The notes under the pieces are model-generated. The model had not been told where the DNA came from and ran no database searches. It was given only the letters and a program-made list of their open reading frames with translations. 64,000 nucleotides of DNA from Balanoglossus misakiensis (lineage: Eukaryota > Animalia > Hemichordata), in the NCBI GenBank assembly GCA_040954595.2, contig CM082594.2, positions 1,196,247 through 1,260,246 of the forward strand. Reading direction: 5' to 3'. Shown here piece by piece: positions 14,122 to 47,100 of this stretch. The position numbers were made by a program, and so were the translations under genes. Every line of letters begins with the position of its first letter. Position 1 is the first letter of the stretch.

Positions 14122-14152
14122 GATCCTTTATAAACGAGCGGTGTTAATTGGC

Positions 14153-16991: not shown

Positions 16992-18962
16992 GTGGCGGCA
17001 GCTAACTTCAGACCCATGGATACTAGAAACAGTGCAAGGTTACAAGCTGGAACTCGTGTCAACACCAGTGCAGTCGCATCTACCAGTTACGGCTGTTCAG
17101 TCATGCCATGTAGATTTGATCGACACAGAAATACAGTCTTTGTTACAAAAGGCGGCAATACATCCAGTGGTACCAGTTCAAGGTCAGTTTGTGTCAACAA
17201 TATTTCTAGTACCCAAAGTGTCAGGAGGTTGGCGCCCGGTTTTCAACCTGAAATCACTCAATCGGCACATTGCTTATCAGCACTTCAAGATGGAGGGCCT
17301 TCAGCATGTCAAGGCGCAACTTCGTCCAGGCGACTTCATGGCCACAGTAGACCTGAAGGATGCATATTTCACTATCCCAATTTTTGTAGATCACAGAAAG
17401 TTTCTTCGGTTTATTTGGAAGGAGACGATGTTCGAATTTGCAGTTCTGCCGTTCGGCATTGCCAGTGCTCCTCGAGTTTTTACGAAAATGTTGAAGCCAG
17501 TCGTCGCTCAGTTTCGTCGCCAAGGTATTTGATGTGTAATTTATATAGACAACCTCCTGATCCTGGGGGAATCCAGGAAGTTTGGCCAAGCGAATGTAGA
17601 GACAGCTGTGCAACTTCTGCAGAGTGTAGGTTTCCTCGTAAATTGGGAAAAATCCAAACTTCAACCAAAACAGCAAGTTCAGTTTTTGGGTATGATGATC
17701 AACTCCATAGACATGACGATCAGTTTCCCACAGGAAAAGGTACAGAAACTCCAATCAGAATGTTGCTGGGAAAAGAAGTGGTCACTGTGCGTTGCCTAGC
17801 AAAGGTGTTGGGGCGAATGACAGCAGCTCTGGAGGCGAAAACTGTGGCGCCACTTCATTACCGGGCTCTTCAGAAAGATCAGCTGAAGGTGTTCGCTCTG
17901 ACAGGGTGCTTCGATTCCCCATTGAGTCTCTCTCGAGCAGCAAAGACAGAGTTGAGATGGTGGGTAGAATGTCTTCATGCGTGGAATGGCAAGTCCCTAC
18001 TACCACATACACCGCAACTGATAGTTCAGACAGATTCGTCCATCAGAGGATGGGGAGCAGTATGCGGGCACAACTCGGCACAGGGACAGTGGAACCAGAG
18101 TCTCCACATAAATCAGCTGGAGATGCTGGCAGTTTGCAGAGGATTGGAGCGTCCGGCAAGTCATCTGCAGGACATCTGTGTCGAAGTCCAGTGAGACAAT
18201 ACATCAGTAGTGTCTTACATCAACCGTCAGGGAGGCACTCGGTCTTGGCCTCTGAGCGAGTTGGCGGCCAGTCTATGGTTGTGGTGCCTGAAGCGCAACA
18301 TTATACTATCAGCAGTGCATCTGCCGGGGAGAATCAATTAAGAGGCGGATTACCTTTCGCGAAAATTCAACGACAATCTGGAATGGCAGCTCAACCCAGT
18401 TGTGCTCCAGAAAGCCCTCCGGATGTTACAGTGGATACCGCAAGTGGACCTGTTTGCGACACATCTGAATGCACAGCTTCCTCGTTACGTCTCTTGGAAA
18501 CCAGATCCACAAGAGTGGCGAATAGACGCATTTTCCATTCAGTGGAACAAGCTGGTAGGCTATGTGTTTCCTCCGTTTTGTCTTCTTCCAAGAATTCTGC
18601 ACAAAGTTCATCAGGACAAGGCACGCATAGTTCTGGTGGCCCCAGTGTGGACGACTCAACCCTGGTATCCGGATTTGCTTTCACTTCTGATACAAAATCC
18701 GTTATTGCTCCCACAAGTCCCAGACCTGTTAGTCGATCTGTTGACAGGGCAGAATCATCCACTCGCAAACCAAATGTTGCTAGCCGTGTGGCCGCTCTCA
18801 GGTGTACTCTCCGAGCAAGAGGCATATCTGAAAGGGTGTCTAAAATTATCCTCCAAAGCATCAGACGAGGCACTGCAAAACAGTATGAGTCAGCCTGGCG
18901 TCGCTGGAATCGTTGGTGTCAAAGACAAAAGGAAGATCCTATTTCAGCGCCTATCCCTATAG
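16992..18962 (+). pseudogene. DIRS RT, RNase H and adenine methyltransferase-like domain
   Basis: FLVPKVSGGWRPVFNLKSLN, DLKDAYF, LPFGIASAPRVFTK; TGA at 17530, then YIDN in place of YxDD; TDSSIRGWG, HINQLEMLAV; VDLFAT...DAFS..W...YVFPPF...APVWTTQPWY. Confidence 0.92.
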
Positions 18963-19740
18963 TGTTGGAATTTCTTGCAGACCAACTTGATAGACAACTT
19001 CAGTATCACACCATTAATGTATATCGTTCAGCTATCTCTTCAGTGCACTTGCCAGTTGATGGATATCGTTTGGGAAATCATCCACTTGTTACACAGTTTA
19101 TGAGGGGAGTTTATGTATCCAGACCACCCAGGTATGGGATGTTCAGCAAGTTTTGACTTTTCTTCAGTCTTGGTCGCCATCCAAGGATTTGTCGCTGAAG
19201 TGTTTAACATTAAAAACTGTTATGTTAGTTGCGTTATGTACAGCAGGACGGTGTTCTGATTTGGCAAATCTCCAGTTGGAGTCTATTTCGTTATCCAAGG
19301 GATCAGCTGTTTTGCTTCCGGCTAGTTTGTCGAAGACAGACAGACCAGCCAAGAAAAGAATAATTGTTGTTTTAACAGCCTTCAAGAAGGATCGAAGGTT
19401 ATGTGTAGTCTATTATTTGGCTTCTTATTTGCGTCGGGTGCAGTCTTTACGCAAGCACAAGAAGACCCTTTTCGTTAGTTTTGCGTCAGGAAAACCTGTT
19501 TTGCCAAGTACCATAGCAAGATGGATTAAATTGGTGCTTCAGAAGAGTGGTATAGACAAGGTCTTCTCAGCACATGCAACTAGAGCAGCAGTTACTTCAG
19601 CCCTTCATTTCAGAGGAGCCTCGTTACAGCAAATTATGGGTTTGGCGAATTGGTCCTCTTCTAGAACCTTTGCTAAACATTACCAGTGTGAGGTATCATC
19701 ATTGACTTCTCCAGTGTTGGACACCTTGGTAACCAAATAG
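18780..19740 (+). pseudogene. DIRS tyrosine recombinase (frameshift near 19130-19155)
   Basis: RRGTAKQYESAWRRW, TINVYRSAIS, HPLV; catalytic motifs GRCSDL, HATRAA, ANWSSSRTFAKHY. Confidence 0.92.
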
Positions 19741-19809
19741 GTGAGTTGACTACCTGTTGTTCTCAGGTGCTTTGTCTTTAAAATCAGCTATGGAAATGAG
19801 GGAAGTCAC

Positions 19810-19911
19810 TGAAGGATGTGAGAATAAATAAAAATTATACCACATCTTACTGTTACAGGATAATTGTGGTTATTCTCTCATCCTGGAGGAACGAACCGAA
19901 TTGAAGTAGCT
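19810..19911 (+). repeat. DIRS internal complementary region (ICR)
   Basis: GGATGTGAGAATAA is complementary to the left end, followed directly by sequence complementary to the right end (ATAAAAATTATACCAC...GAATTGAAGTAGCT). Confidence 0.9.
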
Positions 19912-20173
19912 CCCACCTCCCACCCAAAAATTATGTTTTCTGTTTGTCTTTTCTTAGTTTCATGCTTTTAAAGATGGTTGCTCGTCCGTAAGGCAGGTGT
20001 ATATGGGATATTATTTAAATATTCATGTCATAGGTCATAGGTTATTTCTTTGAAAGGGCTGTGTCTACTCCGAGGTCAAGGGAAGACAGCTACTTCAATT
20101 CGGTTCGTTCATTCAGGATGAGAGAATAACCACAATTATCCTGTAACAGTAAGGTGTGGTATAATTTTTATTT

Positions 20174-20704
20174 TCAATGTCTTTGGTTAATGTCAGAAGA
20201 AGCTTTCCTCTGACTGCTGTTGCCACTACTGTTCCCGGCGGTATGGTGACGTTGTCATCGGTCAGGTTTACTAAACAGATGATTGGGGGCTGCCCCTTTT
20301 TACAGAATGTCCGGGGCATAATGACGTCACCTAGTTTCACTGGTTCCACTATGTAGTCGGGCATGTCCATGTCGATTGTCCCTGTCACCCTGGTCACGGA
20401 GTTCGGAGACAGGATAGTGCATGGAGCGACTGATATGTAAGCCACGTGCCACAGTGGTCTGGTCCCCTTGCAGCAACGGGACATGCTGTTCTCCCACCTG
20501 GAGGAAGTTTTCTCGCATGTGGAGGATGACCTGTTTGGATCGAAGTTGGTCTACTCCCAGCAGCATGGTGTCTCCTATTGGGCCAACATATATATTTTCT
20601 CGAAAGGCAGTGCCCTCTAACTTCAGGTTCACTGGTCCAATTTTGAATCCTCTCATGGACGAGTCTCTTCCTGCTAGGTGTACTTTGACAACAAGCTTTT
20701 TCAC
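20174..20704 (-). pseudogene. Gypsy aspartic protease C-terminal half and linker (frameshifted)
   Basis: IYVGPIGDTMLLGVD (LLG.D motif), then ICLVNLTDDNVTIPPGTVVA. The frame continues across the DIRS insertion into 15102-15026 (one TAA). Confidence 0.75.
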
Positions 20705-20724
20705 TCCACAAGTGGCTGTGTGAT

Positions 20725-20884
20725 GTTTTCCGGGGGTCTTCGTATTTTTTGCCCGTCAAAGGGGGGGGGGTCATCATTTGTTGGTCCTGGGTGAAAGGGG
20801 GTTCTGCTTGATTTTAAAAAAACCGATGACACAAACTTGCCGACCCCCCCCCCCCACTTCCAACCGTAAAAACTGAACCGCCCC
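20725..20884. mobile_element. Right-end fragment of a Harbinger-type MITE (same family as 6738-7542)
   Basis: GTCAAAG(G)nTCATCA...GATGACACAAACTT...AAAACTGAACCGCCCC|TAA matches 7420-7545. It abuts the truncated Gypsy 5' end. Confidence 0.7.
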
Positions 20885-22096
20885 TAAAGAAATAAAAAAT
20901 GCCATAACCAGTGAATGGTCATCCGCAATATTTGGTTTTTAATGTTTACTCGACCCTTTAGTCGACAGCCCATGTGGATATACCAGTCCGGTAACCGTTG
21001 ACATCAATCAGATTAAAATCAGATGTAGAATGTAGCGCCGTCTTTACCTTTGCTTATTCTTGGCTATTCCTGAAAAAGGACGAGAGTGGCCCGTTGCCGT
21101 TTTATAAGAGGACACCCCTAGCGCAAAGACAAATCCTGAGGTATCGAGAATTAAAATACAAACGTTTTCTTGTGACGTGGGTACCGCCGTACAATGTAAG
21201 GACAACACTCTTGTTGCCCTTTCTTCTATAAAAGTGAATTTTCATACATGTTGCTTGATAAGTCTCCCCAAGCGTCGAAAAATCAATGTACTGGACTTTG
21301 CAGTTTTGGGAGCCATATTGCCAAGTTCACAAAGTAGCCGGAAAGGTTATGACAAAGCCTGAGAATGACGCATGCGCACTTGGCAGCCTTGTCGCCTGTA
21401 GTGAGACAAACGCTAAACAGAACATGCAGGTCAAATTCATGATTCTATTAATTAAGATAAGCTGTCACTTGAAATTCGGAAGAGCGATAAATGACGACTG
21501 GACTGGCTTTGAGGTACACGCCCACGCGGCAGTTTTGCTTGAAAATTATTAAAACGTATTGGGCAATGTGGGATTCTAGATGGCAACAGACGTCGACTTC
21601 ACCATCGAAAGAGTGATTTTACGTGTTGTGGGTATGGGCATGGCGCTGGCCCTTTAAATACACACAATAAAGAGTAAGCAATTGGGTTGATCACAATGCA
21701 TCTCAACTAAGTAAACAGCGCAAAAGTATTAATTTGTATAACTACGGGCGGCCATGCACATTTTAATGAACTCATTGTTGAATCATGAACAGTACTAGAT
21801 CGAGAATGGATTTGTCTTTCTATTACATCATCACCGTCATGTCATTGCCTTGGTGCTGGCTATATCATGTTTACATTTATCCTCTGATTTGAAGACTTAA
21901 GCAGTACGTATCTGGAAAGACGAAAAATAAAAACAATATGGACTCAGTGAAAACTCAAAAATTAAAAATCATGCAAATTCCCCTTGTTATTATGTGGTCT
22001 CTAGTGTAAGCAAAATGTCGATCCGTTAGCCTCCATGTAACAATAAAGTCACAACATGAGTTCCAACTTTGTGTATTTTTAATTTGATGACTATAT

Positions 22097-22187
22097 TCAC
22101 CGCGCACCTGGAATTCCACAGACGAAGCCCTTTGGTTTGACGTCGCAGTATTTGTCATCCCATAAACCCATGTGCCCATTTCTATAC
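22097..22187 (-). CDS. Isolated C-type-lectin C-terminal exon (copy at 48640-48730, + strand)
   Basis: TCTTACAG acceptor, then YRNGHMGLWDDKYCDVKPKGFVCGIP, matching the W-D-D-x-x-C...F-V-C CTLD ending. Confidence 0.65.
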
Positions 22188-22651
22188 CTGTAAGATATCA
22201 ACGGTTGCACTGCGATTGGTACCTGCGTGTTTGGAGACATCGGTTTTATTAATACTGTAAGCATGTGATCTTGATTTAGAAAACCGAAAAAGATACCGTA
22301 TAACTGATGCATATAACAAAAATACATAACGTTACGGGTGGTAATGAACCTGTCACGGCCCTGATTCACCATCTTCGCTTGAATCCACAAGTACTGTCTT
22401 TCCATTAACGACATATTTGCTATCATTGCTAAAACTCGTACAAATAGTTCACAAATCATGAAATTTATATTTTTAGACTACACGTACACAGGAAACCCCT
22501 TACAGCCCTGTACTATTATCATGTCTGTCACATGGATTTACACAGTCGTGTACCAGCTATGTTGGCACACAGACTCTGTACCAGCTATGTAAAAAGAAAT
22601 GATGTTACATATGAATAAGATGTGTGAGAAAAAGTCCTGTGTCATACCCTT

Positions 22652-22802
22652 TTTCACACAGCCCTGTACCAGGGGTGTACGTACACACGCTGGACCAGTC
22701 GTATTTCACACAGCCCTGTAACAGGTGTGCACGTACACACGGCTGGACCAGTCGTATTTCACACAGCCCTGTAAAAGGGGTGTACACACGGCTGGACCAG
22801 TC
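22652..22802 (+). repeat. ~52-55-bp minisatellite, 3 copies
   Basis: TTTCACACAGCCCTGTA...ACACACG(G)CTGGACCAGTC repeated three times. Confidence 0.85.
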
Positions 22803-23010
22803 ATACACATGCTGTACTGGGGAGTCTCATGATATTTCGTTTCTTTTAGACAGTTAGTTGTACTATTATTGGGCTCAAAGGTTACGCCTCAGCTCATACG
22901 AACTCAGAGTGCTTGATGTCAAAGGTCAAATCCCCTATCCAAATCCTCCATGTATTTTTCATTTGACGTATGCTTTAGCTGGAGCAGTCAAACCCGGGAC
23001 TCAAACTAAT

Positions 23011-23822
23011 TACGGGCCCAAGCCAAGCCAGGCTTGGGCCCGTATTGGTTTCGTTGGGTTTTTTACGGGCCCAAGCCAAGCCAGGCTTGGGCCCGTATTG
23101 GTTTCGTTGGGGTTTATAGGGCCCAAGCGCAAGCAAGCGCTTGGGCCCTATTGGTTTCGTTTTTTTTTTTACAGGCCCAAGCCAAGCCAGGCTTGGGCCC
23201 GTATTGGTTTCGTTGGGGTTTTTCAGTCTTTCTTTCTTTAGGGCCCAAGCCCATACCAGCGCTTGGGCCCTATTGGTTTCGTTGGGGTTTTTTAGGGCCC
23301 AAGCGCATACCAGCGCTTGAGCCCTAATGGTTTCGTTGGTTTTTTTTAGGGCCCAAGTGCATACCAGCGCTTGGGCCCTATTGGTTTCGTTGGGGTTTTT
23401 CTGTCTTTCTTTAGGGCCCAAGCGCACGCAAGCGCTTGGGCCCTATTGGTTTCGTTGGAATTTTTAGGGCCCAAGCGCACGCAAGCGCTTGGGCCCTATT
23501 GGTTTCGTTTTAATTTTTTAGGGCCCAAGCGCACACCAGCGCTTGGGCCCTATTGGTTTCGTTGGGGTTTTTAGGGCCCAAGCGCAAGGAAGCGCTTGGG
23601 CCCTATTGGTTTCGTTGGAATTTTTAGGGCCCAAGCGCAAGCAAGCGCTTGGGCCCTATTGGTTTCGTTGGAATTTTTACGGGCCCAAGCCAAGCCAGGC
23701 TTGGGCCCGTATTGGTTTCGTTGGGTTTTTTTACGGGCCCAAGCCAAGCCAGGCTTGGGCCCATATTGGTTTCGTTGGAATTTTTACCAGGCTTGGGCCC
23801 GTATTGGTTTCGTTGGAATTTT
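23011..23822 (+). repeat. Tandem array of ~53-bp hairpin units (~14.5 copies)
   Basis: GGGCCCAAGC-N(9-11)-GCTTGGGCCC plus TATTGGTTTCGTT and a T/G-rich tail. The arm-2 copy at ~47155-47817 has a different unit content. Confidence 0.95.
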
Positions 23823-24996
23823 TCTTTCTTTCTTTATTCTTGTGTCAATTCTTTGACCCACGAGATCTCAGACACCGCTGCAGGTACACTTCTGAAACTT
23901 GCTACAGTGGTCAAGGTCAATGAGTAGTCGTGCATTGAACCCTTGAATTTTTAATTAGTCTCGTGACCTGGCGGCCATCCTGGATTTTCTGAAAAAATGC
24001 AAATCTCAGATCTCAGAAACTACAAGTTAGATCGACTTCAAATTTGGCATGTTGGTAGACTACCTACTGCCCATCATTTTTGTAATTGAAAATTATGCTG
24101 AAAAAGTTGCAGTTTTTTGCTACAATTTTTTTTCTGAAATCTGGCTTAAATTTCAAAAATCTTCTTCTCCAGAACCGGTGATAACCGAGACACAGGGTTT
24201 GGTGTATGTGGTCACCTAACTGATGTCTATCAAGTTTGCGAAGATCATTGTGATTGGTCGAAGATTTTGGCGGCCATATTGGATTTTCGAAACACCCTAG
24301 TAAAATTTCAAAAATCTTCTTCTCAAGAACCGGCGATTACCGAGTCACAAGATTTGGTGTGTGTGGTCATTAAACAGATGTCTATCAAGTTTGCTAAGAA
24401 GAATGTGATTGGTCGAAGATTATGGCGGCCATATTGGATTTTGTGAAAAACGATTAAAAAGTAAAAACTCCCTTTCTAGCCTAAAAATTGTTAGCACAGA
24501 AATTCTTTTTATGGATATGAATCATCATATGACAAGAATAAGCTATAAATATTTTGGTAATTTTGGCAATGACCTTTGACCTACCTTTGACGCATCATTT
24601 TTCTGCATATCTGCACTGAAAATCGTCGCACCTGCAACGACCCATTGACTGAGCCGTTGATTTTATTTGTCGACGCACCCGACTGTTATCAGGCTGACTG
24701 AATGGGCATGTAACAGAATTTGCAACATTGTTGTGTTGAAGCAGACGCGGAGTCTCGGATTACATTACAGAGTGAATATACGACCGAGACACTTGATGAA
24801 ATCAAAAGTTCAAACTTTGTAATGAATAAAGAACACGGTAAAAGTTGTGCGTGTTTTTCCCCCGATTATTTTAAATGAAAGACAGATATTCATCATGCAT
24901 GATTCACTAAGAAACATTTATTCCACTAAAACACACCAAGCGATCGAAAGATAAAATACACAGTCCGTTTGATCAAAACTCGACACGGGTGAAAAC

Positions 24997-26079
24997 TCAA
25001 AGTTGCGGTACTTGTATATAACCAGTTGCAGCATAATACTCGTGCGTATCGTTTGGGGTGATCATTCGCACTGCATCGTACACCGCCACGGCTACATTGT
25101 CATGTAATAGTTCGCGGTAATAGTCTCTTTTCAGGAGACTTTTCAACTTACTAAAGCAATTCTCGACAGGATTAAAATCTGGCGAGTACGTTGGTAAAAA
25201 TACCATTTCAACTCCGATATCATCCAACATATTTCTTACATGATCACCTGGTTGATGGTGATGTATAGGAGCGTTGTCTACAACAACAGTGTCTCCTGGA
25301 TTCAAAACAGCCTCACCGTCATTTGTGTACGCCGCCATGGCTTCAGCAAAGTACCTAATGAATTCATCGCCATTGGAGGGTCCCTCAATAACAGAACAAT
25401 ATTTAACACCATCAATTCCAACGAGCAGATTCACTGTGTTATTTGCACCTGTCAAATATCTGCCGATTTCATAGGTTTTCACTCCCCTCTGAGAATGACC
25501 ATATGTACGTTGACCGGTCTGTATTTTGACCCCGCTTTCATCCATAAACTTGACTCTCGCCGGATTCTTCGTCATCAAGTAGTCCACATAGGCTTGCGTG
25601 TACTCCATATTTTCTTCGGTCAAACGATGTTGATTGATGACAGACATTCTGGTAAATGTCCACGGACCGCCAGTTAGTTCATTACGAACAGCTCTACCCA
25701 CGGTACTGACGCTGACTGAGTTAACCGTGCCGTATTGCATCAGTTGGTCCACTATTTCCTGGTACGTAATGGAAGGTCTTTCCCTTTTCAACATCTCGAT
25801 AAATTCCAGATCAGGATCGGTGAGCTTGCTCTGCTGGGTTGATCCACGAGGAGTGGGTGGATCGATTTCACCGGTTTCACAGTAGTGTTTCCAAAAACGA
25901 CTCACTGTTGATTTGTTCACTCTGAACCTGTCCGCTACTTTTTTCAAACAACCAGCTGGAAAATACCCGGTCCTCTGATTTGCTCTGAGTGTCACCATTT
26001 CATTTCTGATCAATGAACGCAAGTCACTTGAGAGTGGTTTTCCGCGAGAAAACGAGCGTCCGCTCCGACTCACTTCCAT
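24997..26079 (-). CDS. Intact DD37E transposase with paired-like DNA-binding domain (360 aa from the ATG at 26079)
   Basis: GKPLSSDLR...VADRFRVNKSTVSRFWKHYCETG; FMDESG, VVDNAPIH, LPTYSPDFNPVE, with 37 residues between the second D and the E. Confidence 0.95.
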   Translation of the reverse strand: MEVSRSGRSFSRGKPLSSDLRSLIRNEMVTLRANQRTGYFPAGCLKKVADRFRVNKSTVSRFWKHYCETGEIDPPTPRGSTQQSKLTDPDLEFIEMLKRERPSITYQEIVDQLMQYGTVNSVSVSTVGRAVRNELTGGPWTFTRMSVINQHRLTEENMEYTQAYVDYLMTKNPARVKFMDESGVKIQTGQRTYGHSQRGVKTYEIGRYLTGANNTVNLLVGIDGVKYCSVIEGPSNGDEFIRYFAEAMAAYTNDGEAVLNPGDTVVVDNAPIHHHQPGDHVRNMLDDIGVEMVFLPTYSPDFNPVENCFSKLKSLLKRDYYRELLHDNVAVAVYDAVRMITPNDTHEYYAATGYIQVPQL

Positions 26080-26417
26080 ATTTCTTACAATATTTATCAA
26101 ATATAAGGTTGTGGACAAGGCGGGAATGTTCCCTATTAGTTAGGAACATACCAAATTACATGTTGATGACTTTGCTCAAACTTCCATTAAAATAACCATA
26201 CTGAGTACATTGGTAATTAAGATGACATTAAATTGTATATTTGGAATATTTTTGACAGGTAACGTTTTACAAATTTGTTTGCGATGTGGAAAAGTTTTGT
26301 TCTCGTTCTGAGTTCATACACGACCCCCCCTCCCCCCTAATTTGTTGGTCCTTCCACCCGACAGTTTCACTGCGTTCGACACGTGCGTGTGTGGAAGACA
26401 TCAGTAAATAGCTGTCT

Positions 26418-28037
26418 ATGATAAACATGGAATCAAAGTCTCCAAGTAACATGTCAACGGTCGAGAGATTTCTGGTTTCCATAAGCCCAACTCTTCTGAA
26501 GTATCGATCCGACTTTGAAGAGCAGGACTTCATTTCAACGACTTCGCTGAAGTTTTTCACGGAAGATGACTTTTCGAAGTTCAAGAATCGGGTCAGCGAA
26601 ACTCACAAACGGATGATTATGTACGGGATTGACAACCTGCCGACCCCACGGTTGAATGATCGCCGGGAACAGAAAGGGAGCCCTGACAGTGCAGGACCAA
26701 GTCGTGGAAGAATTCCTAAAAGACTTTTCCGATCTCCACGGGATCGGGAAAGGCGGCCAAGTAGACATCGTGAATCATCGGCCCGGGGGCGTAAAGAGAG
26801 TATGCCCACTGCCCAATATGCAACGGTGGAATCGGAAACTGCCGCTCCTGCCGCGGTTGATGACAATGGTGCCGGTGGTGATGATGATGAATGGGGAAAC
26901 TATACTTGGCAATCCCCGAGCGAGCTCATGATGGAAGCGTTAGAAAGTGAAATTTCAGAAATAGAAATGGAACTTGATGAGGCTTCCAAGAAATACAACG
27001 ATCTCAACAATCGCTACCGACAAACGGAGCAACTCCGAGAAGCGGGCCAAAAGAAATGCACAAACTGTCACGTCTATGGCTCACATGACAAGCGAAAGTG
27101 TCCGTTTCCAACTTGTGTTACCGTTGAACAGTGCGGTTCATTGCCTGACCATCCCGTGGAAAGAAAAGAACTTACATCAGCAAATGAGGTTGTCTCTAAG
27201 CTGAAAAGTGACTTAAGGAAAAAGAAATCAACGCTTGAGTTAAAGAAAGCAGTTCACGAGGCTACCTCAACAACGTTTTACTCGCGCGTGTACAGTACCT
27301 TACTTAATTCTAACAAGCGGAAATATTTGATTCGAACAGCGTCTGGAGTCGTGCCACATACCGCTATCATCAAAGGAGACTGTGCCATTCTTGAGAAACA
27401 CTACAAGGGCAAAATTCCGCAAAACATTGAACGCGCGGGAAAAACATTTCAAACTATTATCGACAATTTCAATAGTAAACACAACCGTGCCGATAAATAT
27501 CGCCCTGGTTCTCGACTGCCAGACCCCATTCAAGAGGTGTTAAAGCGACGAAAGATGCAAATGTCGCCTAGGCGAGCTCCCGAGCTGAATGAGGCACCGA
27601 CAAACCCTGAACTTCGCGCAGAAACTCCGTCCCAAAGTCAAGGAAATCGCGGCCGTACCTGTTCGCCTCCCAAAGAAGGCCCTAGCAACGCTCAAGCGGC
27701 TGGCTTACATGAACTGTCAACAAATTGTTCACCGTGTGTGTCAAATTCAGGCCCAGTTGTAATTCCGACTACGTCTCATTCGTACAGTCCGTATGTGCCG
27801 TATACGTATGGTTACCCCTATCAGTTTTATCCTTGGAATTGGGGCGCTGACACACCGCCGACTTCACATTTCAGTCTGATGTTTACACCATTCGGCTACG
27901 GCCCTCATGCATACGAAGGGAATATAGCAACTACAACCTATCCAACATCGACCATTGATATTGCTGCAGTGCAACCAGCATTTCCAATCGAGCCACGCGT
28001 TGATAACCCCCCTCAGCCTTCTGAAGCAGATGAGTAA
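26418..28037 (+). CDS. Intact 539-aa transposon ORF2 (SAM-like N-terminus, coiled coil with Cys/His knuckle, P/Y-rich tail)
   Basis: Uninterrupted, intronless ORF inside the TIRs. VERFLVSISPTLLKYRSDFEEQDF...HKRMIMYGIDNL; CTNCH...H....C....C.....C.....H. Confidence 0.85.
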   Translation: MINMESKSPSNMSTVERFLVSISPTLLKYRSDFEEQDFISTTSLKFFTEDDFSKFKNRVSETHKRMIMYGIDNLPTPRLNDRREQKGSPDSAGPSRGRIPKRLFRSPRDRERRPSRHRESSARGRKESMPTAQYATVESETAAPAAVDDNGAGGDDDEWGNYTWQSPSELMMEALESEISEIEMELDEASKKYNDLNNRYRQTEQLREAGQKKCTNCHVYGSHDKRKCPFPTCVTVEQCGSLPDHPVERKELTSANEVVSKLKSDLRKKKSTLELKKAVHEATSTTFYSRVYSTLLNSNKRKYLIRTASGVVPHTAIIKGDCAILEKHYKGKIPQNIERAGKTFQTIIDNFNSKHNRADKYRPGSRLPDPIQEVLKRRKMQMSPRRAPELNEAPTNPELRAETPSQSQGNRGRTCSPPKEGPSNAQAAGLHELSTNCSPCVSNSGPVVIPTTSHSYSPYVPYTYGYPYQFYPWNWGADTPPTSHFSLMFTPFGYGPHAYEGNIATTTYPTSTIDIAAVQPAFPIEPRVDNPPQPSEADE

Positions 28038-28749
28038 CTTTGAACACTAAACGTCATATAAACTTTGTGCAGTGAAAAAACTGTTGAACTTTCTCCTTGA
28101 AATTGTTTCATTAAGACTTCGTTGCCTGGTTCTTATTTTAATAGAAGTAGACTGTTGTTTTGATCATTGCCCCCCTGTTAAGGACGCAATATACATGTAA
28201 ATTTATATTACATGCAAGTGTTATGATGAAAAAAAACGAGGTCAAGTTGAATACGGAAACATTTTGAACTGTCTGACAGACCTCTAGTCGTGTCCTTTGT
28301 ATTTTATCTTTCGATCGCTTGGTGTGTTTCAGTGGAATAAATGTTTCCTAGTGAATCATGCATGATGAATATCTGTCTTTCATTTAAAATAATGGGGGGG
28401 GGGGGGAAACACGCACAACTTTTACCGTGTTCTTTATTCATTACAAAGTTTGAACTTTTGATTTCATCAAGTGTCTCGGTCGTATATTCACTCTGTAATG
28501 TAATCCGAGACTCCGCGTCTGCTTCAACACAACAATGTTGCAAATTCTGTTACAAGCCCATTCAGTCAGCCTGATAACAGTCGGGTGCGTCGATAAATAA
28601 AATCAACGGCTCAGTCAATGGGTCGTTGCAGGTGCGACGATTTTCAGTGTAATTCCAGGCTAACCAATAGGGCTATAAGTTTGGTGTTTGATGTATGTGG
28701 ATTTGTATGTGATCAAAAAATTTTGCTACTTTTCATGACCTCTGCTGAC

Positions 28750-29640
28750 CTCATTAAATATGCACATATCTAATTACAGATGAACCAATAGACCTAGAGG
28801 TTTTGTTTTTGTTATACATGGACCAGTATGGGGACAAAATATTTTGCCCAAATGTTGGGTGACCTCGGGTGACCTTTGACCTACTTTTGCATATCTCGAC
28901 ATCCACAGCAGATACAGCCTTGGCGTTTGGAGGTACATGTATGGGGCCATACGGAAAAGACAAAGTTTTGAGTGACCTGTGACACCTGCTTGACTCATTA
29001 TTTATGTGCATACCTAATTCTGGGCTAACCAAAAGGGCTAGAGGTTTTGTTTTTGTTATACATGGACCAGTATGGGGTCAAAATATTTTGCCCAAATGTT
29101 GGGTGACCTCGGGTGACCTTTGACCTACTTTTGCATAACTTGACATCCACCGCAGATACAGCCTTGGCGTTTGGAGGTATGGGGCCATAATGAAAAGCCA
29201 AAGTTTTGGCTCACCTGTGACACCTGCTTAACTCATTATTTATGTGCATACCTAATTCTGGGCTAACCAAAAGGGCTGGAGGTCTGGTTTTTGTTGGACA
29301 TGGACCACTATGGGTCAACATTTTCTGCCCAAATTTTGGGTGACCTCAGATGACCTTTGACCTATTTTTGCATATCTCGACATCCACAGCAGATACAGCC
29401 TTGGCGTTTGGAGGTATGGGGCCATAATGAAAAGCCAAAGTTTTGGGTCACCTATGACACCTGCTTAACTCATTATTTATGTGCATACCTAATTCCGGGC
29501 TAACCAAAAGGGCTAGAGGTCTGGTTTTTGTTGGACATGCACCACTATGGGTCAAAATTTTCTGCCCAAAATTTGGGTGACCTCAGATGACCTTTGACCT
29601 ACTTAACACAATATCAGCACCAAACATAGATATAACCTTG
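28750..29640 (+). repeat. ~238-bp tandem core repeat, ~3.7 copies
   Basis: CTCATTATTTATGTGCATACCTAATTC recurs at ~28994, ~29232 and ~29469; GACCTTTGACCTA motifs. Confidence 0.9.
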
Positions 29641-29743
29641 ATATGTCATGGGATAAAACACAGCATTATGTTTCTACTCATTAATTATGTGCAGATCAGA
29701 TAATAGAGCTTGGGCCCGGACAATGCTGCTTGCAGCTTTAATT

Positions 29744-30934
29744 CTTCTTCTTCGTCTTCTTCTTCTTCTTCCGAGAAAATCGGCCAGGTAGATCTGGAAA
29801 ACCGCTGCACCTAGGGGGCTAAACTTGGTAGGGTGATAGGGGCCAATGAGTAGACGTGCAGTGGCTCGTGAATATTTATTTAGTCACGTGACCTGGCGGC
29901 CATATTGCATTTCCTGAAAATCGTTAAACGAGTCCTTCTCAAATTTGGTGTGCAGGTAGCCTACCTTCTGTCCATCATTTTACCCCATTGAAATCATGAC
30001 GTCACACAAAGTTTTTTTGCTACAATTGTTTTTCTGAAAAACTACTTAAAACTTTAAAAATCTTCTTCTCCAGAACCAGCGATTGCCGAGTCACGGGATT
30101 TGGGGTATGTGGTCACCTAACCTATGTTTATCAAGTTTGCGAAGCGCACTGTGATTGGTCGATCATTATGGCGGCCATGTTGGATTTTCGGAAAACCATT
30201 GAAAAATGAAAATTCTGTTTTGTAGCCAAAATGTTGACAGCACGTAAATTCTTTTTTTGGATATGAGTCATCATATGACCGGAAGTTGTTACAATTTTTC
30301 GGGGCAATTTTGACATGACCTTTGACCCAGTTTTAAAACAACTAATTATATATGCATATTCCCCATACCTCCTCTTGTAAAAGCACCACAGTCATGAATT
30401 TTGTGGACATGGGTACCAATGCTGCCAGGACATGACACAACTATTTTGGTAATTTTGGCAATGACCCTTGACCTATTTCTGAAACATCATTTTTCTGCAT
30501 ATCTAATTCCAGGCTAACCAATAGGGCTAGAGGTCTGGTTTTAGTTGGACATGGCCCACTCTGGGGTCAAAATTTTATGCCCAAATTTTGGGTGACCTTG
30601 GATGACCTTTGATCTAATTTCCCATATCTCAGCATCCACAGCAGTTAGAGTCCTGGCTTTTGGAGGGCCGATGGAGCAGATATGGAGTCTTACACAAGAC
30701 CTCATTAATTATGCGCATACCTAATTCTAGGCGAACCAATAGAGCTAGGTGTTTGGTTTTTGTTGGACCTAGACTAGTATGGGGTCCGATTTTTTTGCCC
30801 AAATTTGGGGTGACCTCAGGTGACCTTTGACCTACTTTCCAATATCTTGGTATCCGCAGCAGATACAGCCTTGGCATTTGCTTGTTACCATGGGAACCGC
30901 TTGTGCCCCGCCAACGCTGCTTGCAGCTTTAATT
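29744..30934 (+). mobile_element. Second related HINE-like unit in tandem
   Basis: (CTT)n start, body homologous to 23900-24610, same GCTGCTTGCAGCTTTAATT terminus. Confidence 0.6.
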
Positions 30935-31171
30935 GTATTTTGCATTTTCTCACGGTGGCGACCATATTCCTTTGCGGCGAAGATTTATTATTTGTCTGGT
31001 TTAAACATGCATATGCACTCATACTTAGGGTTCATAATACTTGTACATAGTTCAGTGCATACTTCTGTATGGGCTAAAGGTGGTGCAGTTTGAAAAAAGT
31101 GTGATAATTTCCCAAAAGTACCAGCTGATGCACCGATTTATGTCTAATCTCTGTTTTGAATTTCTTGGCAG

Positions 31172-31372
31172 CTTAACCCAAGTTGATAGTACCCTTCTTG
31201 TCCTGGACAGAAGTCTATCTGTCAGTACAAATGGTGTAACCGTATCAGTTGATGACAACTCGTGGCATAATGTTGTCATGGTAATTGAAGAAGGCATTGT
31301 GGCAGTTTACTTGAATGGTGTTGCAGTAACATCACCCCTTCCATCCTGGACAGGTATCGCTGACTCAGAAAA
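31172..31372 (+). CDS. Exon: LamG/pentraxin part 1
   Basis: GCAG| ... |GTAAGT; WHNVVMVIEEGIVAVYLNG. Confidence 0.85.
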
Positions 31373-31775
31373 GTAAGTTGCTAGTGGAACTCCGAACATT
31401 TTTAACTCCTACAAAGCCATAGAAAATTGTCATCATCTCATGTTAAAATTCTATATTTTCCTATACTGTCAAGTTTTCCCAAGCCTCAAGAGAAGTGAAC
31501 CATTTATTTGTGAAGCAGTTATCTTGTTTGTAACTTATCTGCTAGGTAGCTTGTCTTACTCCTACATGACAATACAATATCATCATAACATGTTGCGACT
31601 TACAACAAAACTGGCCAAAAAAATCAAGGGAGCAAACTATGGACATCAGCAAAGCTATCTTCGTGGCACTTTCAAATTCAAACTTATGCGGAACGATACT
31701 GATTTTCACAGTTTATTTTTGACAACTTCTTACCAGCACTTTTAATGAATTCATTATTCTCTTGTTTTTCAACAG

Positions 31776-32059
31776 CTGTATGGTAATTCTTGGTCAAAGC
31801 TATGACGAAAATGGACTCCTTGACAACTATTTTAGCTTCCATGGTGATGTTACACAGATGAATGTATACGATTATGTATTGACTCATGTTGAAATCCAGA
31901 GTCTGGCTTTGAACTGTTCACAAAGTCCACTTGGCAATCATGTCATGTGGGTTGAAATGGATCAAGAGTTATTGGGTAGTGTGGTCAAAATCCAGCCATC
32001 AGCTTGTGGAAGTACCAGGTGCCCAATTGGTTACTCTGGTTCACCATGCACACCTGTTG
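31776..32059 (+). CDS. Exon: pentraxin part 2 and EGF-like segment
   Basis: ACAG| ... |GTAAAT; VILGQ, FHGDVTQMNVYDYVLT, CPIGYSGSPC. Confidence 0.88.
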
Positions 32060-32392
32060 GTAAATAGCCTTATTCATTACTATCAAACAATTTTATGCAT
32101 AATCTGACGAGGAGAAATTGGGTCACAGAGTTGATTAATCCTAAATCCTTACTTTAACACAGCTCTCCTTGTAATGTTGTGTCTGTCCAGGAAAAACTGT
32201 GTGAAATTTTGAGTAGTTTTTCCTGTGTACATTCACCAGCCCCTAGCTGATGTGTGTTGTACTCCAATAAAACAGCATGCAATCTCCCTACTTTAGGAAG
32301 TATAGGGAATCATCATCTGCCCATGCCTGTATCGCTCACTCTTTTTGTTTCTACCGTACATGTATTTAACACTGAATGTAATGATACTATTC

Positions 32393-32488
32393 ACAACCAC
32401 CATCATCATCATCATAATCATCATCACCACCACCACCACCATCACCATCATCATCATCATCGTCATCATCATCACCATCATCATCATC
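32393..32488. repeat. (CAT/CAC)n microsatellite (mirror at ~42827-42922)
   Basis: Intronic trinucleotide run. Confidence 0.95.
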
Positions 32489-32788
32489 AGTTTCTGCTGT
32501 TCCAAGAACTAGGCTTATCATGAGTGTAATTGATCATATCAGTTATTATGCCTATGGATACCATCTCATGACTCCTGTCCTATCTTGTAGTGTTTCTTGA
32601 CAGTGATCTAGTCTATTCACATGTATCAGAAAACAAGCACTTAACAATATCTGGATTTCTCATGAATATGTGACAGATATTAACATCTAGTAGTGCATTT
32701 ACCTAAATGTACCAGTGTATACATAGGGGGTGTGGACCAGTTGTTTAATTTACAAACATTTGTTATTCTTTCACTTTTTTTTCTTCAG

Positions 32789-32929
32789 ATAAACACGCTC
32801 CTGAAGTCATTTACTGTCCCAATACGACCCGTATAATTAGTCCTAATAGCTTGACAACAGGAGTATGGCAGGAGCCTATATTTACAGATGATGTCGCCAT
32901 TGCCAATGTGACACAAACCTACACAATGG
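32789..32929 (+). CDS. Exon: HYR domain part 1
   Basis: TCAG| ... |GTAAGT; DKHAPEVIYCP...WQEPIFTDD. Confidence 0.88.
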
Positions 32930-33633
32930 GTAAGTTTCCTATAAAATATCATTTCTGATTATAGATAATATATAACATTCACACTAACTAAGTTTTTTTT
33001 ATCGGGGTGGGGTGGGGAGTTGATCTAAACAGAAACCAACAAGCTGAGACAACTTTCCTAAGATTATGGTCAGTATGAAGCATACTGGTACAGTGTATTC
33101 TTGTGGCCGTTACTCATATATGGCTAGCACATCCTATGTGCGACAGATGATCTTGCTTCCAAGTATTAAAGCCTCAATTGCTGATACTATTACCATATGT
33201 TTATAGGCCCTTTCCTCGATCCCAGGGCAGTACAATGAAGTTAAAACTCGAAAGCATTTGTGTTTGCACGTAATTGTGTATTGGAAACAAAAGATTTGAC
33301 CAACTGTTGAGCAAGGCCTTTAATCAGTAAAGTACTTAATATTCTCCACTACTACTGGGGATACCCATACCACAAATGTTGTGTTCTCTTACAATGGGCA
33401 GTTGAATAAACGTGTGCGGCACCATATCTGTTTAGTATACATATCTTGTTCATGTTTATATGTACAGTCACAATCAGGAGTTGATAATATGCCTGTGTAT
33501 ACCCACCAGATAGCTCACTTAAATGGACCATTCTAAGTTTGAAAAGAAAATCATGAAAAACATTCAAGAAACGGAAGCTATTTTGGCTTTAGCACCCATG
33601 CCTGTAATGATGTGCGTAATTTTGTTCTTACAG

Positions 33634-33729
33634 GTGACACCTTTTCCTGGGGAACCTACCAGATCAGCTATGTTGCTTCAGATACAGCTGGCAACAATGC
33701 ACAGTGCAACTTTTTACTCTATGTACTGC
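33634..33729 (+). CDS. Exon: HYR domain part 2
   Basis: ACAG| ... |GTGAGT; GDTFSWGTYQISYVASDTAGNNAQCNF. Confidence 0.88.
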
Positions 33730-33826
33730 GTGAGTGAATTTTTTTATCATTCATACATAAACTTTAAAAATTAATTAATATCTTGACAAATTGTCATCTC
33801 TACCCCTTGTTATGTCTTGTCACATA

Positions 33827-34016
33827 CTGTAAAACGGGACATTTTCGTGACAGAAAATATTTTGCAATATATCAAAAGAGGCAACTGTGACACGAGAATT
33901 AAATTTCCGCATTCTAGTATTTTACTAACTACTCTGTTATCTCTGAAAAACATTTTATGCGACTTTATTTTCTTCTTCTTTTTTGCCGAAGTTTGGGAAA
34001 ATTTGCCGTTTTACAG
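33827..34016. mobile_element. Small TA-flanked MITE
   Basis: TA|CTGTAAAACGG ... CCGTTTTACAG|TA. Confidence 0.7.
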
Positions 34017-34728
34017 TAATATGATTGCATCATTATCACTTTTGTCCCTATGTAACTATCAAAAATTATAACAACATCATTCAAAACATACAAGGACACT
34101 CAAACCCGTCTAAAACAAACCCTGTCTAATCGGGAAACCTCTCTTCAACCAACAGCTTTTCCTAGTCCCTTTTACATAGAAACATGTTAATGCGTTGGTG
34201 TTCTGTTTAAAAGATTTGACTGTGTAATAAATATGGGTGTCACACATACACCATTAAGACAGTTCTGAAGCATCTCAGAATTGATACTGTCTTAAAAAAA
34301 CATGTGTGGACGGTGTAAGTGGTCCTGAAACGTCTCAGATTTGAGACGGCTCTGCCAGCCAGACCTGAGCCGGTGTAAGGATTAACACCTCTCCGCAACC
34401 CATTGTCTATGGGGCCGAGCCTCAGCGCCCATACATAAACTTTGTGTGTGTGGACACAACATGACTCAAAGGATTAATGCTCTGTGGTTAGCACTGGCAA
34501 ATAGTGTCTCAAATTTTACCCTGTGTGAACCTGGTAAAAGAGGCATTGTGCCCTAGTGGCTAGGGTTGTGGGTTCGTTACCTAGACCAGGACATTTGGGT
34601 AGTATTTGCCTGTTGGATGATATATGAGACACAGACATTTGGGTAGCATTTGCCTGTTGGATGATAGATGAAATAAAATTAAAAATATATATATAGACAA
34701 ATAAACTGTGTTCTCCTTTCTTTTACAG

Positions 34729-34929
34729 CATTTGATTGTGAAAAGCCAGCACCACCAGTTAAAGGTATTTCCATCTGTAATGAGTTTGAGTCGGGTGTGT
34801 TCTGTCAGGTGGATTGTTTACCAGGATACAAGTTTGCAAGCCTGCCAGCACCTTACTATCTCTGCCATAGTGAAGGATCTTTTAATCCTGAGAATCCAGA
34901 CGAGGAATTCACCTTCTCTGGATGTTCAG
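34729..34929 (+). CDS. Exon: CCP/sushi-like domain
   Basis: ACAG| ... |GTGAGA; CEKPAPPVKG..C...CQVDCLPGYKF...YLC...GCS. Confidence 0.88.
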
Positions 34930-35332
34930 GTGAGAAAAAAATGATTTGGTATCAGTAAAGAAATATAATCAGGTTGCACATGCACATTCAGAAAATTCTC
35001 CAAAGAGAGAGAGTTGTGAGAGGGGGTATTCCAGCATTGAGACAATTTTCTTTTAGTTATAAATGAAAAGAGAAATATGAGTAATGCAAATTCTTGCTTT
35101 ACAGTATGTCAAGGTTGTGATTACAGGTAGATAATTTGTTAACATCATATCTGCTTACCCCAATATAAAGCTCCAGTACATTTGAGCTATTTTCTTAATA
35201 TTTTGTTCTGGGTAAGCAGCTGTAACTTTCCTGATTGGCTATGCGGTTTCGCAGTCTAAGTCAATACATCGTTCGCTAGATTGAAAATTGCATCTTTAAC
35301 AAAATTTGTTTGTTTGTATTGTTCTACTGCAG

Positions 35333-35585
35333 CTCCTGGGAAGACTCAACGTGGAGTGAATTGTGGCGTGTCATACAATTCACAGGCTGGTACATGTAAC
35401 AATGGTGTCATCCAGCAATTGAGGATCAGTTTTATGAACACTATCAACTATCTGAATGATTTGTTTGGTATTTGTGGCGGTGAATGCAACTTTGATGACC
35501 TTGAAATAACCTGCGGCGCCTCAAACCGAAGAAAGAGACAGGCTGATACTCAGCTTGTGGTTCAGTTCAGTTTCACAACCAATGC
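35333..35585 (+). CDS. Exon with furin-type RRKR site
   Basis: GCAG| ... |GTGAGT; ICGGECNFDDLEITCGASNRRKRQ. Confidence 0.85.
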
Positions 35586-44143: not shown

Positions 44144-47100
44144 CTGCCAAGAAATTCAAAACAGAGATTAGACATAAATCGGTGCATCAGCTGGTACTTT
44201 TGGGAAATTATCACACTTTTTTCAAACTGCACCACCTTTAGCCCATACAGAAGTATGCACTGAACTATGTACAAGTATTATGAACCCTAAGTATGAGTGC
44301 ATATGCAAGTTTAAACCAGACAAATAATAAATCTTCGCCGCAAAGGAATATGGTCGCCACCGTGAGAAAATGCAAAATACAATTAAAGCTGCAAGCAGCG
44401 TTGGCGGGGCACAAGCGGTTCCCATGGTAACAAGCAAATGCCAAGGCTGTATCTGCTGTGGATACCAAGATATTGGAAAGTAGGTCAAAGGTCACCTGAG
44501 GTCACCCCAAATTTGGGCAAAAAAATCGGACCCCATACTAGTCTAGGTCCAACAAAAACCAAACACCTAGCTCTATTGGTTCGCCTAGAATTAGGTATGC
44601 GCATAATTAATGAGGTCTTGTGTAAGACTCCATATCTGCTCCATCGGCCCTCCAAAAGCCAGGACTCTAACTGCTGTGGATGCTGAGATATGGGAAATTA
44701 GATCAAAGGTCATCCAAGGTCACCCAAAATTTGGGCATAAAATTTTGACCCCAGAGTGGGCCATGTCCAACTAAAACCAGACCTCTAGCCCTATTGGTTA
44801 GCCTGGAATTAGATATGCAGAAAAATGATGTTTCAGAAATAGGTCAAGGGTCATTGCCAAAATTACCAAAATAGTTGTGTCATGTCCTGGCAGCATTGGT
44901 ACCCATGTCCACAAAATTCATGACTGTGGTGCTTTTACAAGAGGAGGTATGGGGAATATGCATATATAATTAGTTGTTTTAAAACTGGGTCAAAGGTCAT
45001 GTCAAAATTGCCACGAAAAATTGTAACAACTTCCGGTCATATGATGACTCATATCCAAAAAAAGAATTTACGTGCTGTCAACATTTTGGCTACAAAACAG
45101 AATTTTCATTTTTCAATGGTTTTCCGAAAATCCAACATGGCCGCCATAATGATCGACCAATCACAGTGCGCTTCGCAAACTTGATAAACATAGGTTAGGT
45201 GACCACATACCCCGAATCCCGTGACTCGGCAATCGCTGGTTCTGGAGAAGAAGATTTTTAAAGTTTTAAGTAGTTTTTCAGAAAAACAATTGTAGCAAAA
45301 AAACTTTGTGTGACGTCATGATTTCAATGGGGTAAAATGATGGACATAATGCTGTGTTTTATCCCATGACATATCAAGGTTATATCTATGTTTGGTGCTG
45401 ATATTGTGTTAAGTAGGTCAAAGGTCATCTGAGGTCACCCAAATTTTGGGCAGAAAATTTTGACCCATAGTGGTGCATGTCCAACAAAAACCAGACCTCT
45501 AGCCCTTTTGGTTAGCCCGGAATTAGGTATGCACATAAATAATGAGTTAAGCAGGTGTCATAGGTGACCCAAAACTTTGGCTTTTCATTATGGCCCCATA
45601 CCTCCAAACGCCAAGGCTGTATCTGCTGTGGATGTCGAGATATGCAAAAATAGGTCAAAGGTCATCTGAGGTCACCCAAAATTTGGGCAGAAAATTTTGA
45701 CCCATAGTGGTCCATGTCCAACAAAAACCAGACCTCTAGCCCTTTTGGTTAGCCCAGAATTAGGTATGCACATAAATAATGAGTTAAGCAGGTGTCACAG
45801 GTGAGCCAAAACTTTGGCTTTTCATTATGGCCCCATACCTCCAAACGCCAAGGCTGTATCTGCGGTGGATGTCAAGTTATGCAAAAGTAGGTCAAAGGTC
45901 ACCCGAGGTCACCCAACATTTGGGCAAAATATTTTGACCCCATACTGGTCCATGTATAACAAAAACAAAACCTCTAGCCCTTTTGGTTAGCCCAGAATTA
46001 GGTATGCACATAAATAATTAGTCAAGCAGGTGTCACAGGTCACTCAAAACTTTGTCTTTTCCGTATGGCCCCATACATGTACCTCCAAACGCCAAGGCTG
46101 TATCTGCTGTGGATGTCGAGATATGCAAAAGTAGGTCAAAGGTCACCCGAGGTCACCCAACATTTGGGCAAAATATTTTGACCCCATACTGGTCCATGTA
46201 TAACAAAAACAAAACCTCTAGGTCTATTGGTTCATCTGTAATTAGATATGTGCATATTTAATAAGGTCAGCAGAGGTCATGAAAAGTAGCAAAATTTTTT
46301 GATCACATACAAATCCACATACATCAAACACCAAACTTATAGCCCTATTGGTTAGCCTGGAATTAGATATGCAGAAAAATGATGCGTCAAAGGTAGGTCA
46401 AAGGTCATTGCCAAAATTACCAAAATATTTATAGCTTATTCTTGTCATATGATGATTCATATCCATAAAAAGAATTTCTGTGCTAACAATTTTTAGGCTA
46501 GAAAGGGAGTTTTTACTTTTTAATCGTTTTTCACAAAATCCAATATGGCCGCCATAATCTTCGACCAATCACATTCTTCTTAGCAAACTTGATAGACATC
46601 TGTTTAATGACCACACACACCAAATCTTGTGACTCGGTTATCGCCGGTTCTTGAGAAGAAGATTTTTGAAATTTTACTAGGGTTTTTCAAAAATCCAATA
46701 TGGCCGCCAAAATCTTCGACCAATCACAATGATCTTCGCAAACTTGATAGACATTAGTTAGGTGACCACATACACCAAACCCTGTGTCTCGGTTATCACC
46801 GGTTCTGGAGAAGAAGATTTTTGAAATTTAAGCCAGATTTCAGAAAACAAATTGTAGCAAAAAACTGCAACTTTGTCAGCATAATTTTCAATTACAAAAA
46901 TGATGGGCAGTAGGTAGTCTACCAACATGCCAAATTTGAAGTCGATCTAACTTGTAGTTTCTGAGATCTGAGATTTGCATTTTTTCAGAAAATCCAGGAT
47001 GGCCGCCAGGTCACGTGACTAATTAAAAATTCAAGGGTTCAATGCACGACTACTCATTGACCTTGACCACTGTAGCAAGTTTCAGAAGTGTACCTGCAGC

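Follow-up and report, generated by a model that had tools for sequence, protein, structure and literature searches.

A second protein with a conserved eight-ligand Cys/His hairpin and exchangeable SAM and PB1 domains in a hemichordate Tc1/mariner-type transposon

Tc1/mariner elements are the textbook one-gene transposons. A copy in the genome of the hemichordate Balanoglossus misakiensis carries, next to its transposase gene, a second open reading frame (ORF2) that runs in the opposite direction. This raised the question of what kind of protein ORF2 is and what it could do for the element. The analysis covered a stretch of 64,000 nucleotides, called here the window (GCA_040954595.2, contig CM082594.2, positions 1,196,247 to 1,260,246, forward strand).

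The transposon and its transposase

The transposon occupied positions 24614-28649 of the window (4036 bp). It was bounded by terminal inverted repeats of ~355 bp, which were 96% identical over 355 columns (Table 1). The window contained a large inverted duplication (16557-35747 against 54271-39569, in blocks of 97.7-99.8% identity), with the transposon present in one arm and an empty site in the other. The other arm had the same flanks (100% identity across 212 bp on one side and 99% across 251 bp on the other) around a single TA and no element, so that this is a true insertion. The 355-bp repeats, the one-TA empty site and the TA at the right flank are those of the IS630/Tc1/mariner group. 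The left target duplication (24612-24613) reads TG, either because a single base changed later or because of an error in sequencing.

Table 1 Features of the transposon and of ORF2, in window positions.
Feature	Position	Strand	Description and evidence
Left terminal inverted repeat (~355 bp)	24614..24963	.	Begins CACTG; TG precedes where a TA duplication is expected
Transposase, IS630/Tc1/mariner, 360 aa from ATG	24997..26079	-	Paired-like DNA-binding part and DDE domain
ORF2, 539 aa, no stop within	26418..28037	+	Divergent from the transposase gene
SAM domain, residues ~10-78, conserved [ST]P at its end	26445..26651	+	Pfam in relatives, AlphaFold, Foldseek, VIA-align
KRLF, a [RK]xL(x)[FY] motif in the disordered linker, RSPR next	26718..26729	+	Linker motif count
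Hairpin helix 1 (167-204), conserved [YW]x[ST]P ahead	26916..27029	+	Alignment, AlphaFold, fold alignment
Eight-ligand module at the hairpin tip	27057..27152	+	C214-x2-C217-H218-x4-H223-x4-C228-x4-C233-x5-C239-x5-H245
Hairpin helix 2 (246-283)	27153..27266	+	AlphaFold models, fold alignment
Basic helical domain, conserved (284-360)	27267..27497	+	Alignment, models; F287, L295, NSN, Y303, D321, L325, P334
Unconserved tail	27498..28034	+	Residues 446-539: 17 P, 10 Y, 8 D/E, 1 K/R
Right terminal inverted repeat	28295..28649	.	CAGTG at the end, then TA
Empty target site, single TA	46364..46365	-	In the other arm of the inverted duplication

Tandem repeats, other mobile elements and a host exon were found nearby. 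The insertion was flanked by tandem arrays (23010-23786 and 28783-29604), with a 53-bp unit that has internal palindromes and a 237-bp unit. A duplicated element with long overlapping frames (15705-19737, +, and 51091-53910, -) encoded a tyrosine recombinase (Pfam Phage_integrase, E 3e-13, at 19060-19737; three other frames tested gave no Pfam match), and we read it as DIRS-like. An LTR-retrotransposon pol (10576-15055, -) was spread over several frames, with reverse transcriptase, RNase H, integrase and a C-terminal PHD finger. A host exon at 31762-32064 (+) matched the pentraxin family (E 1e-7).

Pfam matches to DDE_3 (E 1.2e-21) and PAX (E 1e-8) identified the transposase as a member of the IS630/Tc1/mariner group. 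The residues of its triad, D180-D268-(37)-E306, were all invariant in the transposase alignment, and the spacing of 37 between the second D and the E was found in all seven cases checked, the present copy and six of the ORF2-linked loci described below. The nearest named relatives came from Ptychodera flava (one protein with 87% identity across 56% of the query and another with 71% across 40%), followed by oyster, mussel and coral proteins at 36-40% identity. The second Ptychodera protein (P0015), a PAX-domain match to 26079-25650 (-), is named 'gooseberry-neuro-like'; it is probably a piece of a transposase to which a Pax annotation was given.

A family with this triad and two ORFs has been described before. 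Puzakov and Puzakova reportedly observed in 2024 that most full-length L31 elements carry an ORF2 of unknown function, which is said to be an integral part of them; the two-ORF elements of bivalves and hexacorals are called 'L31-duo'. According to the accessible text of PMC7325037, DD37E(L31), credited there to Puzakov et al. 2018, is a small family of ITm elements known from bivalves, corals and one nematode, and the hosts in its supplement tree include Pinctada, Crassostrea, Mytilus and corals. The present element shares with it the DD37E triad, the TA target and marine invertebrate hosts, and the named relatives found here (Pinctada, Saccostrea, Mytilus, Oculina and Ptychodera) overlap with the L31 hosts. 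The spacing is not sufficient for an L31 assignment, because TRT, L18 and Mosquito elements have it too. In the available text of 10.1101/656579, DD37E is common to at least four unrelated groups, and by itself it does not define L31 (10.1101/656579, PMC10379824, both as far as accessible). The element is probably an L31-type transposon of the described two-ORF family, a placement made by comparing descriptions. A literature search on L31 and on accessory proteins of two-ORF mariner elements retrieved no paper describing the present ORF2, and no text that reports, for an ORF of this type, SAM/PB1 exchange, an eight-ligand module or motifs for corepressors; the L31 papers may mention SAM or PB1 hits.

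Anatomy of ORF2

A first-pass annotation, made from the letters of the window, had described ORF2 as a Cys/His module between two coiled-coil segments, and the three peptides that it quoted were all found in ORF2. A full HMMER search with residues 1-361 gave 235 relatives at E<=0.001, the list covering the best 150 of these 235. All eight Cys/His residues were present together in 103 of the 110 homologue rows spanning them. Individually, each was kept in 96-100% of the rows covering its position (C214 and C217, 111/113 each; H218, 110/114; H223, 116/116; C228, 114/116; C233, 124/124; C239, 124/125; H245, 125/125). The module is thus conserved and not variable, as the proposed alignment of homologues was to decide. 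Its eight ligands suggest two zinc ions.

In its first half, the module recalls a CCHC zinc knuckle: C214-x2-C217-x5-H223-x4-C228 has a spacing of X2-X5-X4, against the canonical CX2CX4HX4C. Foldseek rows to retroviral nucleocapsid and Gag proteins were non-significant (E 1-3). Unlike a zinc knuckle, ORF2 has four further invariant ligands (H218, C233, C239 and H245), one of which falls inside the first knuckle-like set, and the module had no Pfam match.

The AlphaFold model, built from an alignment of 108 sequences (pLDDT 84, pTM 0.58), showed five helices (14-72), a disordered linker, a helix (167-204), the Cys/His module, a second long helix (246-283) and a helical domain (287-360). Residues 10-76 aligned to 5zrz_B in VIA-align with Z 9.9 (rmsd 1.8, 64 residues aligned). 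The top Foldseek rows for the N-terminal part were nearly all SAM domains, none of them at E<=0.001. Pfam found no SAM domain on the present copy; at E<=0.01 it found SAM_2 in 10 and SAM_1 in 8 of the 108 family members, and PB1 in 6. The N-terminal part is therefore predicted to be a five-helix SAM domain, the likeness that had been proposed, while the RNA-binding variety of SAM, offered at the same time, gained no support here.

The helices 167-204 and 246-283 jointly aligned to two-helix hairpins (2ic9_A, Z 10.6, rmsd 1.4, 74 residues aligned); helical bundles often reach Z values of this size, which therefore show the arrangement only. In the best register, 9/11 and 6/11 of the a/d positions in the two helices were hydrophobic. 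The model thus reproduced the antiparallel coiled-coil hairpin, tipped by the Cys/His module, that had been drawn from the sequence. The conserved core reached further than had been recognised, to about residue 357 (window ~27490), and includes the helical domain 284-360, which the first-pass annotation had missed. This domain is basic, with 15 K/R against 5 D/E. The P/Y tail had been noted as low-complexity; its last 94 residues are acidic as well as Pro- and Tyr-rich.

A second model, of residues 205-362, had a pLDDT of 94.5. It gave no match at E<=0.001 in the PDB by Foldseek, none at Z>=5 in a wide VIA search (best 4.4, an MLLE domain) and no significant match in a viral fold library. The zinc hairpin and the helical domain thus matched none of the solved folds searched, and the zinc module may still have a known fold, because the fold rows barely covered it. 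Sequence searches were similarly unproductive. Pfam gave only coiled-coil-type matches for the whole ORF2 (E 0.04-0.2), and when the whole ORF2 was run through a word-indexed protein search, none of the 7,998 candidates sharing most words gave a match. With the family alignment, the latter search found three unnamed proteins, and a search of PDB sequences gave coiled coils at best (E 0.12), with CDCA7 at E 0.46. The ESM Atlas contained no usable match. The SAM fold, the conserved ligands and the hairpin all held up; the feature is real and its anatomy was drawn rightly, so the first-pass annotation is not refuted, its interpretation being partly supported.

Linkage to the transposase and exchange of the N-terminal domain

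ORF2 had been called unexpected in a cut-and-paste element. A metagenome scan with the transposase alignment covered 14 of the 64 parts of the collection, and the best 80 of 445 loci were kept, with linkage assessed from the transposase side. Ten of these 80 were close (33-41% identity) and, by our reading, of animal type; the other 70 were more distant IS630-like loci. The ORF2 profile matched in 7/10 of the animal-type loci and in 0/70 of the distant ones, 16 of which are at least 2.8 kb long. Because ORF2 accompanies the transposase clade in seven of these ten loci, a second ORF is less unexpected than it had seemed. Six of the seven linked ORF2 genes were convergent with the transposase; one (L001) was divergent, as in the present element. 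Another, L003, is part of an element that is complete, having inverted repeats and a TA at either end. Viral contigs contained five distant transposase loci, none with an ORF2 relative.

The ORF2 relatives in L001 (4182-3823 and 3581-972, -) and L004 (5735-4394, -) were split among several frames, and the position of their SAM part in a separate upstream piece suggests introns or frameshifts. Orientation did not track the N-terminal domain: L004 and L001 both have SAM but are convergent and divergent, respectively, and the convergent L003 has PB1.

Linkage of this kind makes it scarcely credible that ORF2 is a captured host gene or a passenger with no role for the element. Three of the ten loci (L006, L008 and L009) showed no ORF2, and most of the 235 relatives come without genomic context here, as a passenger would allow. 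These three loci extend only 127-1570 bp upstream and 457-2780 bp downstream, each being short on at least one side. ORF2 has been kept beside transposases that are 33-41% identical to the present one, in two orientations. Its named relatives belong to Pinctada, Saccostrea and Mytilus and fall into bivalve clusters with several members each; a species name was available for 3/10 clusters in one set and for 0/10 in another.

The part in front of the core was exchanged within the family. Among 64 members with at least 70 residues ahead of the core, iterated profiles, which we had seeded ourselves, assigned 28 to SAM, 33 to PB1, none to both and 3 to neither; the ORF2 of L003 passed the PB1 cut-off. 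On a core tree of 57 rows (8 labelled rows, too short or with the motif missing, were omitted and 4 loci were added), seven label changes were needed, at least four of them forced by strongly supported branches. Seven changes remained with five weak labels dropped, at least three being forced, and none of the 200 bootstrap trees could be explained by one change.

Many SAM and PB1 domains form only heterodimers. As hints in the sequences, most of the 28 SAM domains had a basic H-[RK]-R where helix 5 begins, 15 of the 33 PB1 members had the acidic patch pattern and 20 of the 33 had the basic residue pattern. The accessible part of PMC7614096 describes SAM and DIX/PB1 as structurally distinct folds that both polymerise head to tail. 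Their repeated exchange on one core suggests that self-assembly may be the property that was kept, and the earlier idea of a polymerising scaffold gains support from it.

A complex prediction without alignments, of ORF2 residues 155-361 with the transposase and two zinc ions, bears on the partner of the core. It scored 0.35 (runs 0.40, 0.35 and 0.25) against 0.08 for the best control; the runs agreed in at least 41% of contacts, with a partner pLDDT of at least 75. Of 78 solved pairs, 51 reached the scoring mark, as did 2 of 108 mismatched pairs, but the passes at 0.60 or lower comprised only 5 of the 78 solved pairs and all 4 passing mismatches. Unless binding was a likely guess beforehand, a passing score of 0.35 will be wrong more often than right. 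The modelling with the transposase, which the first-pass annotation had proposed, thus lends weak support to core-transposase binding.

Tail motifs, possible roles and known systems

Tails were compared over their last 30 residues in 100 relatives and the present copy. Six corepressor-type patterns were used, chosen after the tails had been inspected. A motif was found in 35/101 tails (shuffle mean 1.5, maximum 7 in 500 shuffles), a count whose members are not independent, because relatives share motifs by descent, and which depends on ends that are unreliable, because database proteins are often truncated or come from intron-bearing genes. PxKKR was found 13 times, the WRPW-type 7, two Sin3-type patterns 6 and 4, EH1 3 and CtBP 3 times. 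The Sin3-type (10/101) and the WRPW-type (7/101) each exceeded every shuffle; the CtBP and EH1 classes alone did not exceed the shuffle maximum. PxKKR also resembles a plain nuclear localisation signal, and without this class 22 of the 35 motif tails remain.

The motifs lay at the very C-terminus and differed between subfamilies: they occurred in 28/73 end windows against 0/73 mid-tail windows, and 3/7 of the ORF2 pieces adjoining a transposase ended in one. The remaining 66/101 tails had no motif in their last 30 residues. The tail of the present copy (P0001) belongs to these, lacking AAxxL, PLKKR, PxDLS, EH1 and the WRPW-type, and its composition appears activator-like. The long tail of L001 had several UIM-like repeats and ended in PLDLT and FKPY motifs.

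Stricter patterns, close to those named in PMC9890238, were found in 15/101 tails (shuffle mean 1.6, maximum 6 in 1000 shuffles) and in 5/444 non-terminal windows. AAxxL (9) and P[LI]KKR (4) were above all shuffles, and PxDLS (1), EH1 (1) and HKKF (0) were not. In the part of PMC9890238 that is accessible, AAxxL binds Sin3A, PLKKR the Smrter/NCoR complex, PxDLS CtBP and EH1 Groucho, and such motifs also occur in fragments that do not repress.

UIM-like motifs were found in 13/101 tails (shuffle mean 0.02). An enrichment of PPxP at the C-terminus was unconvincing (19/101, shuffle mean 9.9, maximum 19). The [RK]xL(x)[FY] linker motif, a pattern chosen after the sequences had been inspected, occurred in 35/52 linkers, in both SAM and PB1 types (shuffle mean 1.5, maximum 7); it resembles a cyclin-docking motif.

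Together, the domain exchange and the silencing-like tail motifs of relatives point to a regulator of the element itself. We tentatively prefer the reading, at slightly less than even confidence, that ORF2 is a self-assembling regulator of transcription that is tethered to the element encoding it and acts mostly as a repressor. The SAM or PB1 domain would chain ORF2 head to tail and provide avidity, while the zinc hairpin and the basic helical domain would hold the polymer on the element, through repeat-bound transposase or through DNA. Through its tail, ORF2 would bring in a host corepressor (Groucho/TLE, Sin3, NCoR/TBL1 or CtBP) and so dampen transposase expression; the linker motif and the [ST]P sites might tie this regulation to the cell cycle. 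A repressor role is probable in many relatives; the present copy, with its Pro-, Tyr- and acid-rich tail that has no repressor motif, may regulate in either direction. The UIM-like motifs are not required by the regulator model. The tail motifs of the family, which the first-pass annotation had missed as well, point to transcriptional or chromatin regulation and not to a generic scaffold.

There is a fuller version, which we hold more doubtfully. ORF2 would be a polymer-forming adaptor that grips the transposase by a hairpin of a new fold with two zinc ions and docks onto host corepressor complexes, its polymer domain and its corepressor motif (Groucho, Sin3, NCoR/TBL1 or CtBP) having been swapped repeatedly. 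With it, the element would silence itself or aim its insertions at silenced chromatin, timed by the linker resembling a cyclin-docking motif.

Ty5 and retroviral integrases attach to chromatin by short tethers at the C-terminus, and in Mu and Tn7 the target is chosen by polymers. As the main alternative, ORF2 could be an adaptor whose core binds the transposase, whose tail binds a chromatin corepressor and whose polymer steers insertion into repressed chromatin; swapped tail motifs would then retarget the element. This is rather unlikely by our estimate. It would fit the weakly predicted core-transposase complex (0.35 against 0.08), the subfamily-specific motifs at the extreme C-terminus and, as a single case, the present insertion in repeat-rich DNA, but it leans on a score that is wrong more often than right without a likely prior, and the present copy has no tail motif. 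The regulator and the targeting readings are not mutually exclusive.

We consider it unlikely that ORF2 acts as a cofactor of the transpososome, its polymers bridging the 355-bp repeats or stabilising or importing the transposase, with the tail incidental or a nuclear localisation signal. The long inverted repeats, the tight linkage, the weak complex prediction and the NLS-like PxKKR class would suit such a cofactor, which leaves the C-terminal Sin3-type (10/101) and WRPW-type (7/101) motifs unexplained and would serve a transposase that already has a paired-like DNA-binding part.

An anti-silencing decoy is about as unlikely. Its condensates would soak up or displace corepressors or readers of ubiquitin-marked chromatin, much as VANC proteins act against silencing; the accessible text of PMC6719617 reports that VANDAL elements encode the anti-silencing VANC21 and VANC6. 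The corepressor-type and UIM-like motifs and the activator-like tail of the present copy would be compatible with a decoy. A corepressor held on the element should repress that element, and the known anti-silencing of transposable elements is narrow, according to the same available text (PMC6719617), whereas broad titration would not be.

It is more improbable again that ORF2 is a cytoplasmic RNA or ubiquitin scaffold, a zinc-knuckle RNP or a p62/NBR1-like receptor controlling transposase RNA or protein. The p62/NBR1-like receptors combine PB1, a zinc domain, a coiled coil and ubiquitin binding, and PB1 with UIM-like motifs recalls them, as the knuckle spacing in the first half of the module and the nucleocapsid/Gag rows recall RNA binding. 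These rows were non-significant, the UIM-like motifs occurred in 13/101 tails only, and the corepressor types found in the tails are nuclear.

If the preferred reading, a self-assembling regulator of its own element, holds, the so far uncharacterised second ORF of marine DD37E elements would have a concrete function, and already the family-level anatomy suggests a specific role for this second protein. The repeated exchange of SAM and PB1 on one core amounts to an experiment done by nature and suggests that the two polymer folds, which are unrelated, can replace each other. If instead the targeting reading were true, ORF2 would be a natural modular adaptor for directing insertions.

The Myb-like protein of Harbinger, TnpA of Spm and MuB/TnsC are other accessory proteins that regulate, protect or target their element. 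Second proteins of cut-and-paste elements further include VANC21 and VANC6 of VANDAL (PMC6719617) and the extra ORFs of TBE and Tec (PMC7325037), the one being a zinc-finger protein and the other a recombinase (PMC7325037). As far as the accessible parts of these two sources go, none of them is reported with SAM, PB1 or a zinc hairpin of the ORF2 type. The available text of PMC6719617 describes self-control of Tc1/mariner elements through the transposase, by suboptimal enzymes and overproduction inhibition. An element-encoded regulator that borrows host corepressors would, if confirmed, be a different strategy.

The closest parallels in design are host repressors that polymerise. TEL/Yan and the PB1-EAR proteins of the plant ARF/Aux-IAA type are built in this way. 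Polyhomeotic/Phc2 and other Polycomb SAM proteins also combine a head-to-tail domain, a zinc or DNA-binding core and a corepressor segment, and Polycomb silencing requires SAM polymerisation (PMC7614096, accessible part). ORF2 has no likeness to these host proteins in sequence or fold beyond SAM and PB1. It differs from them in being carried by a transposon and in switching both its polymer domain and its tail motif within one family.
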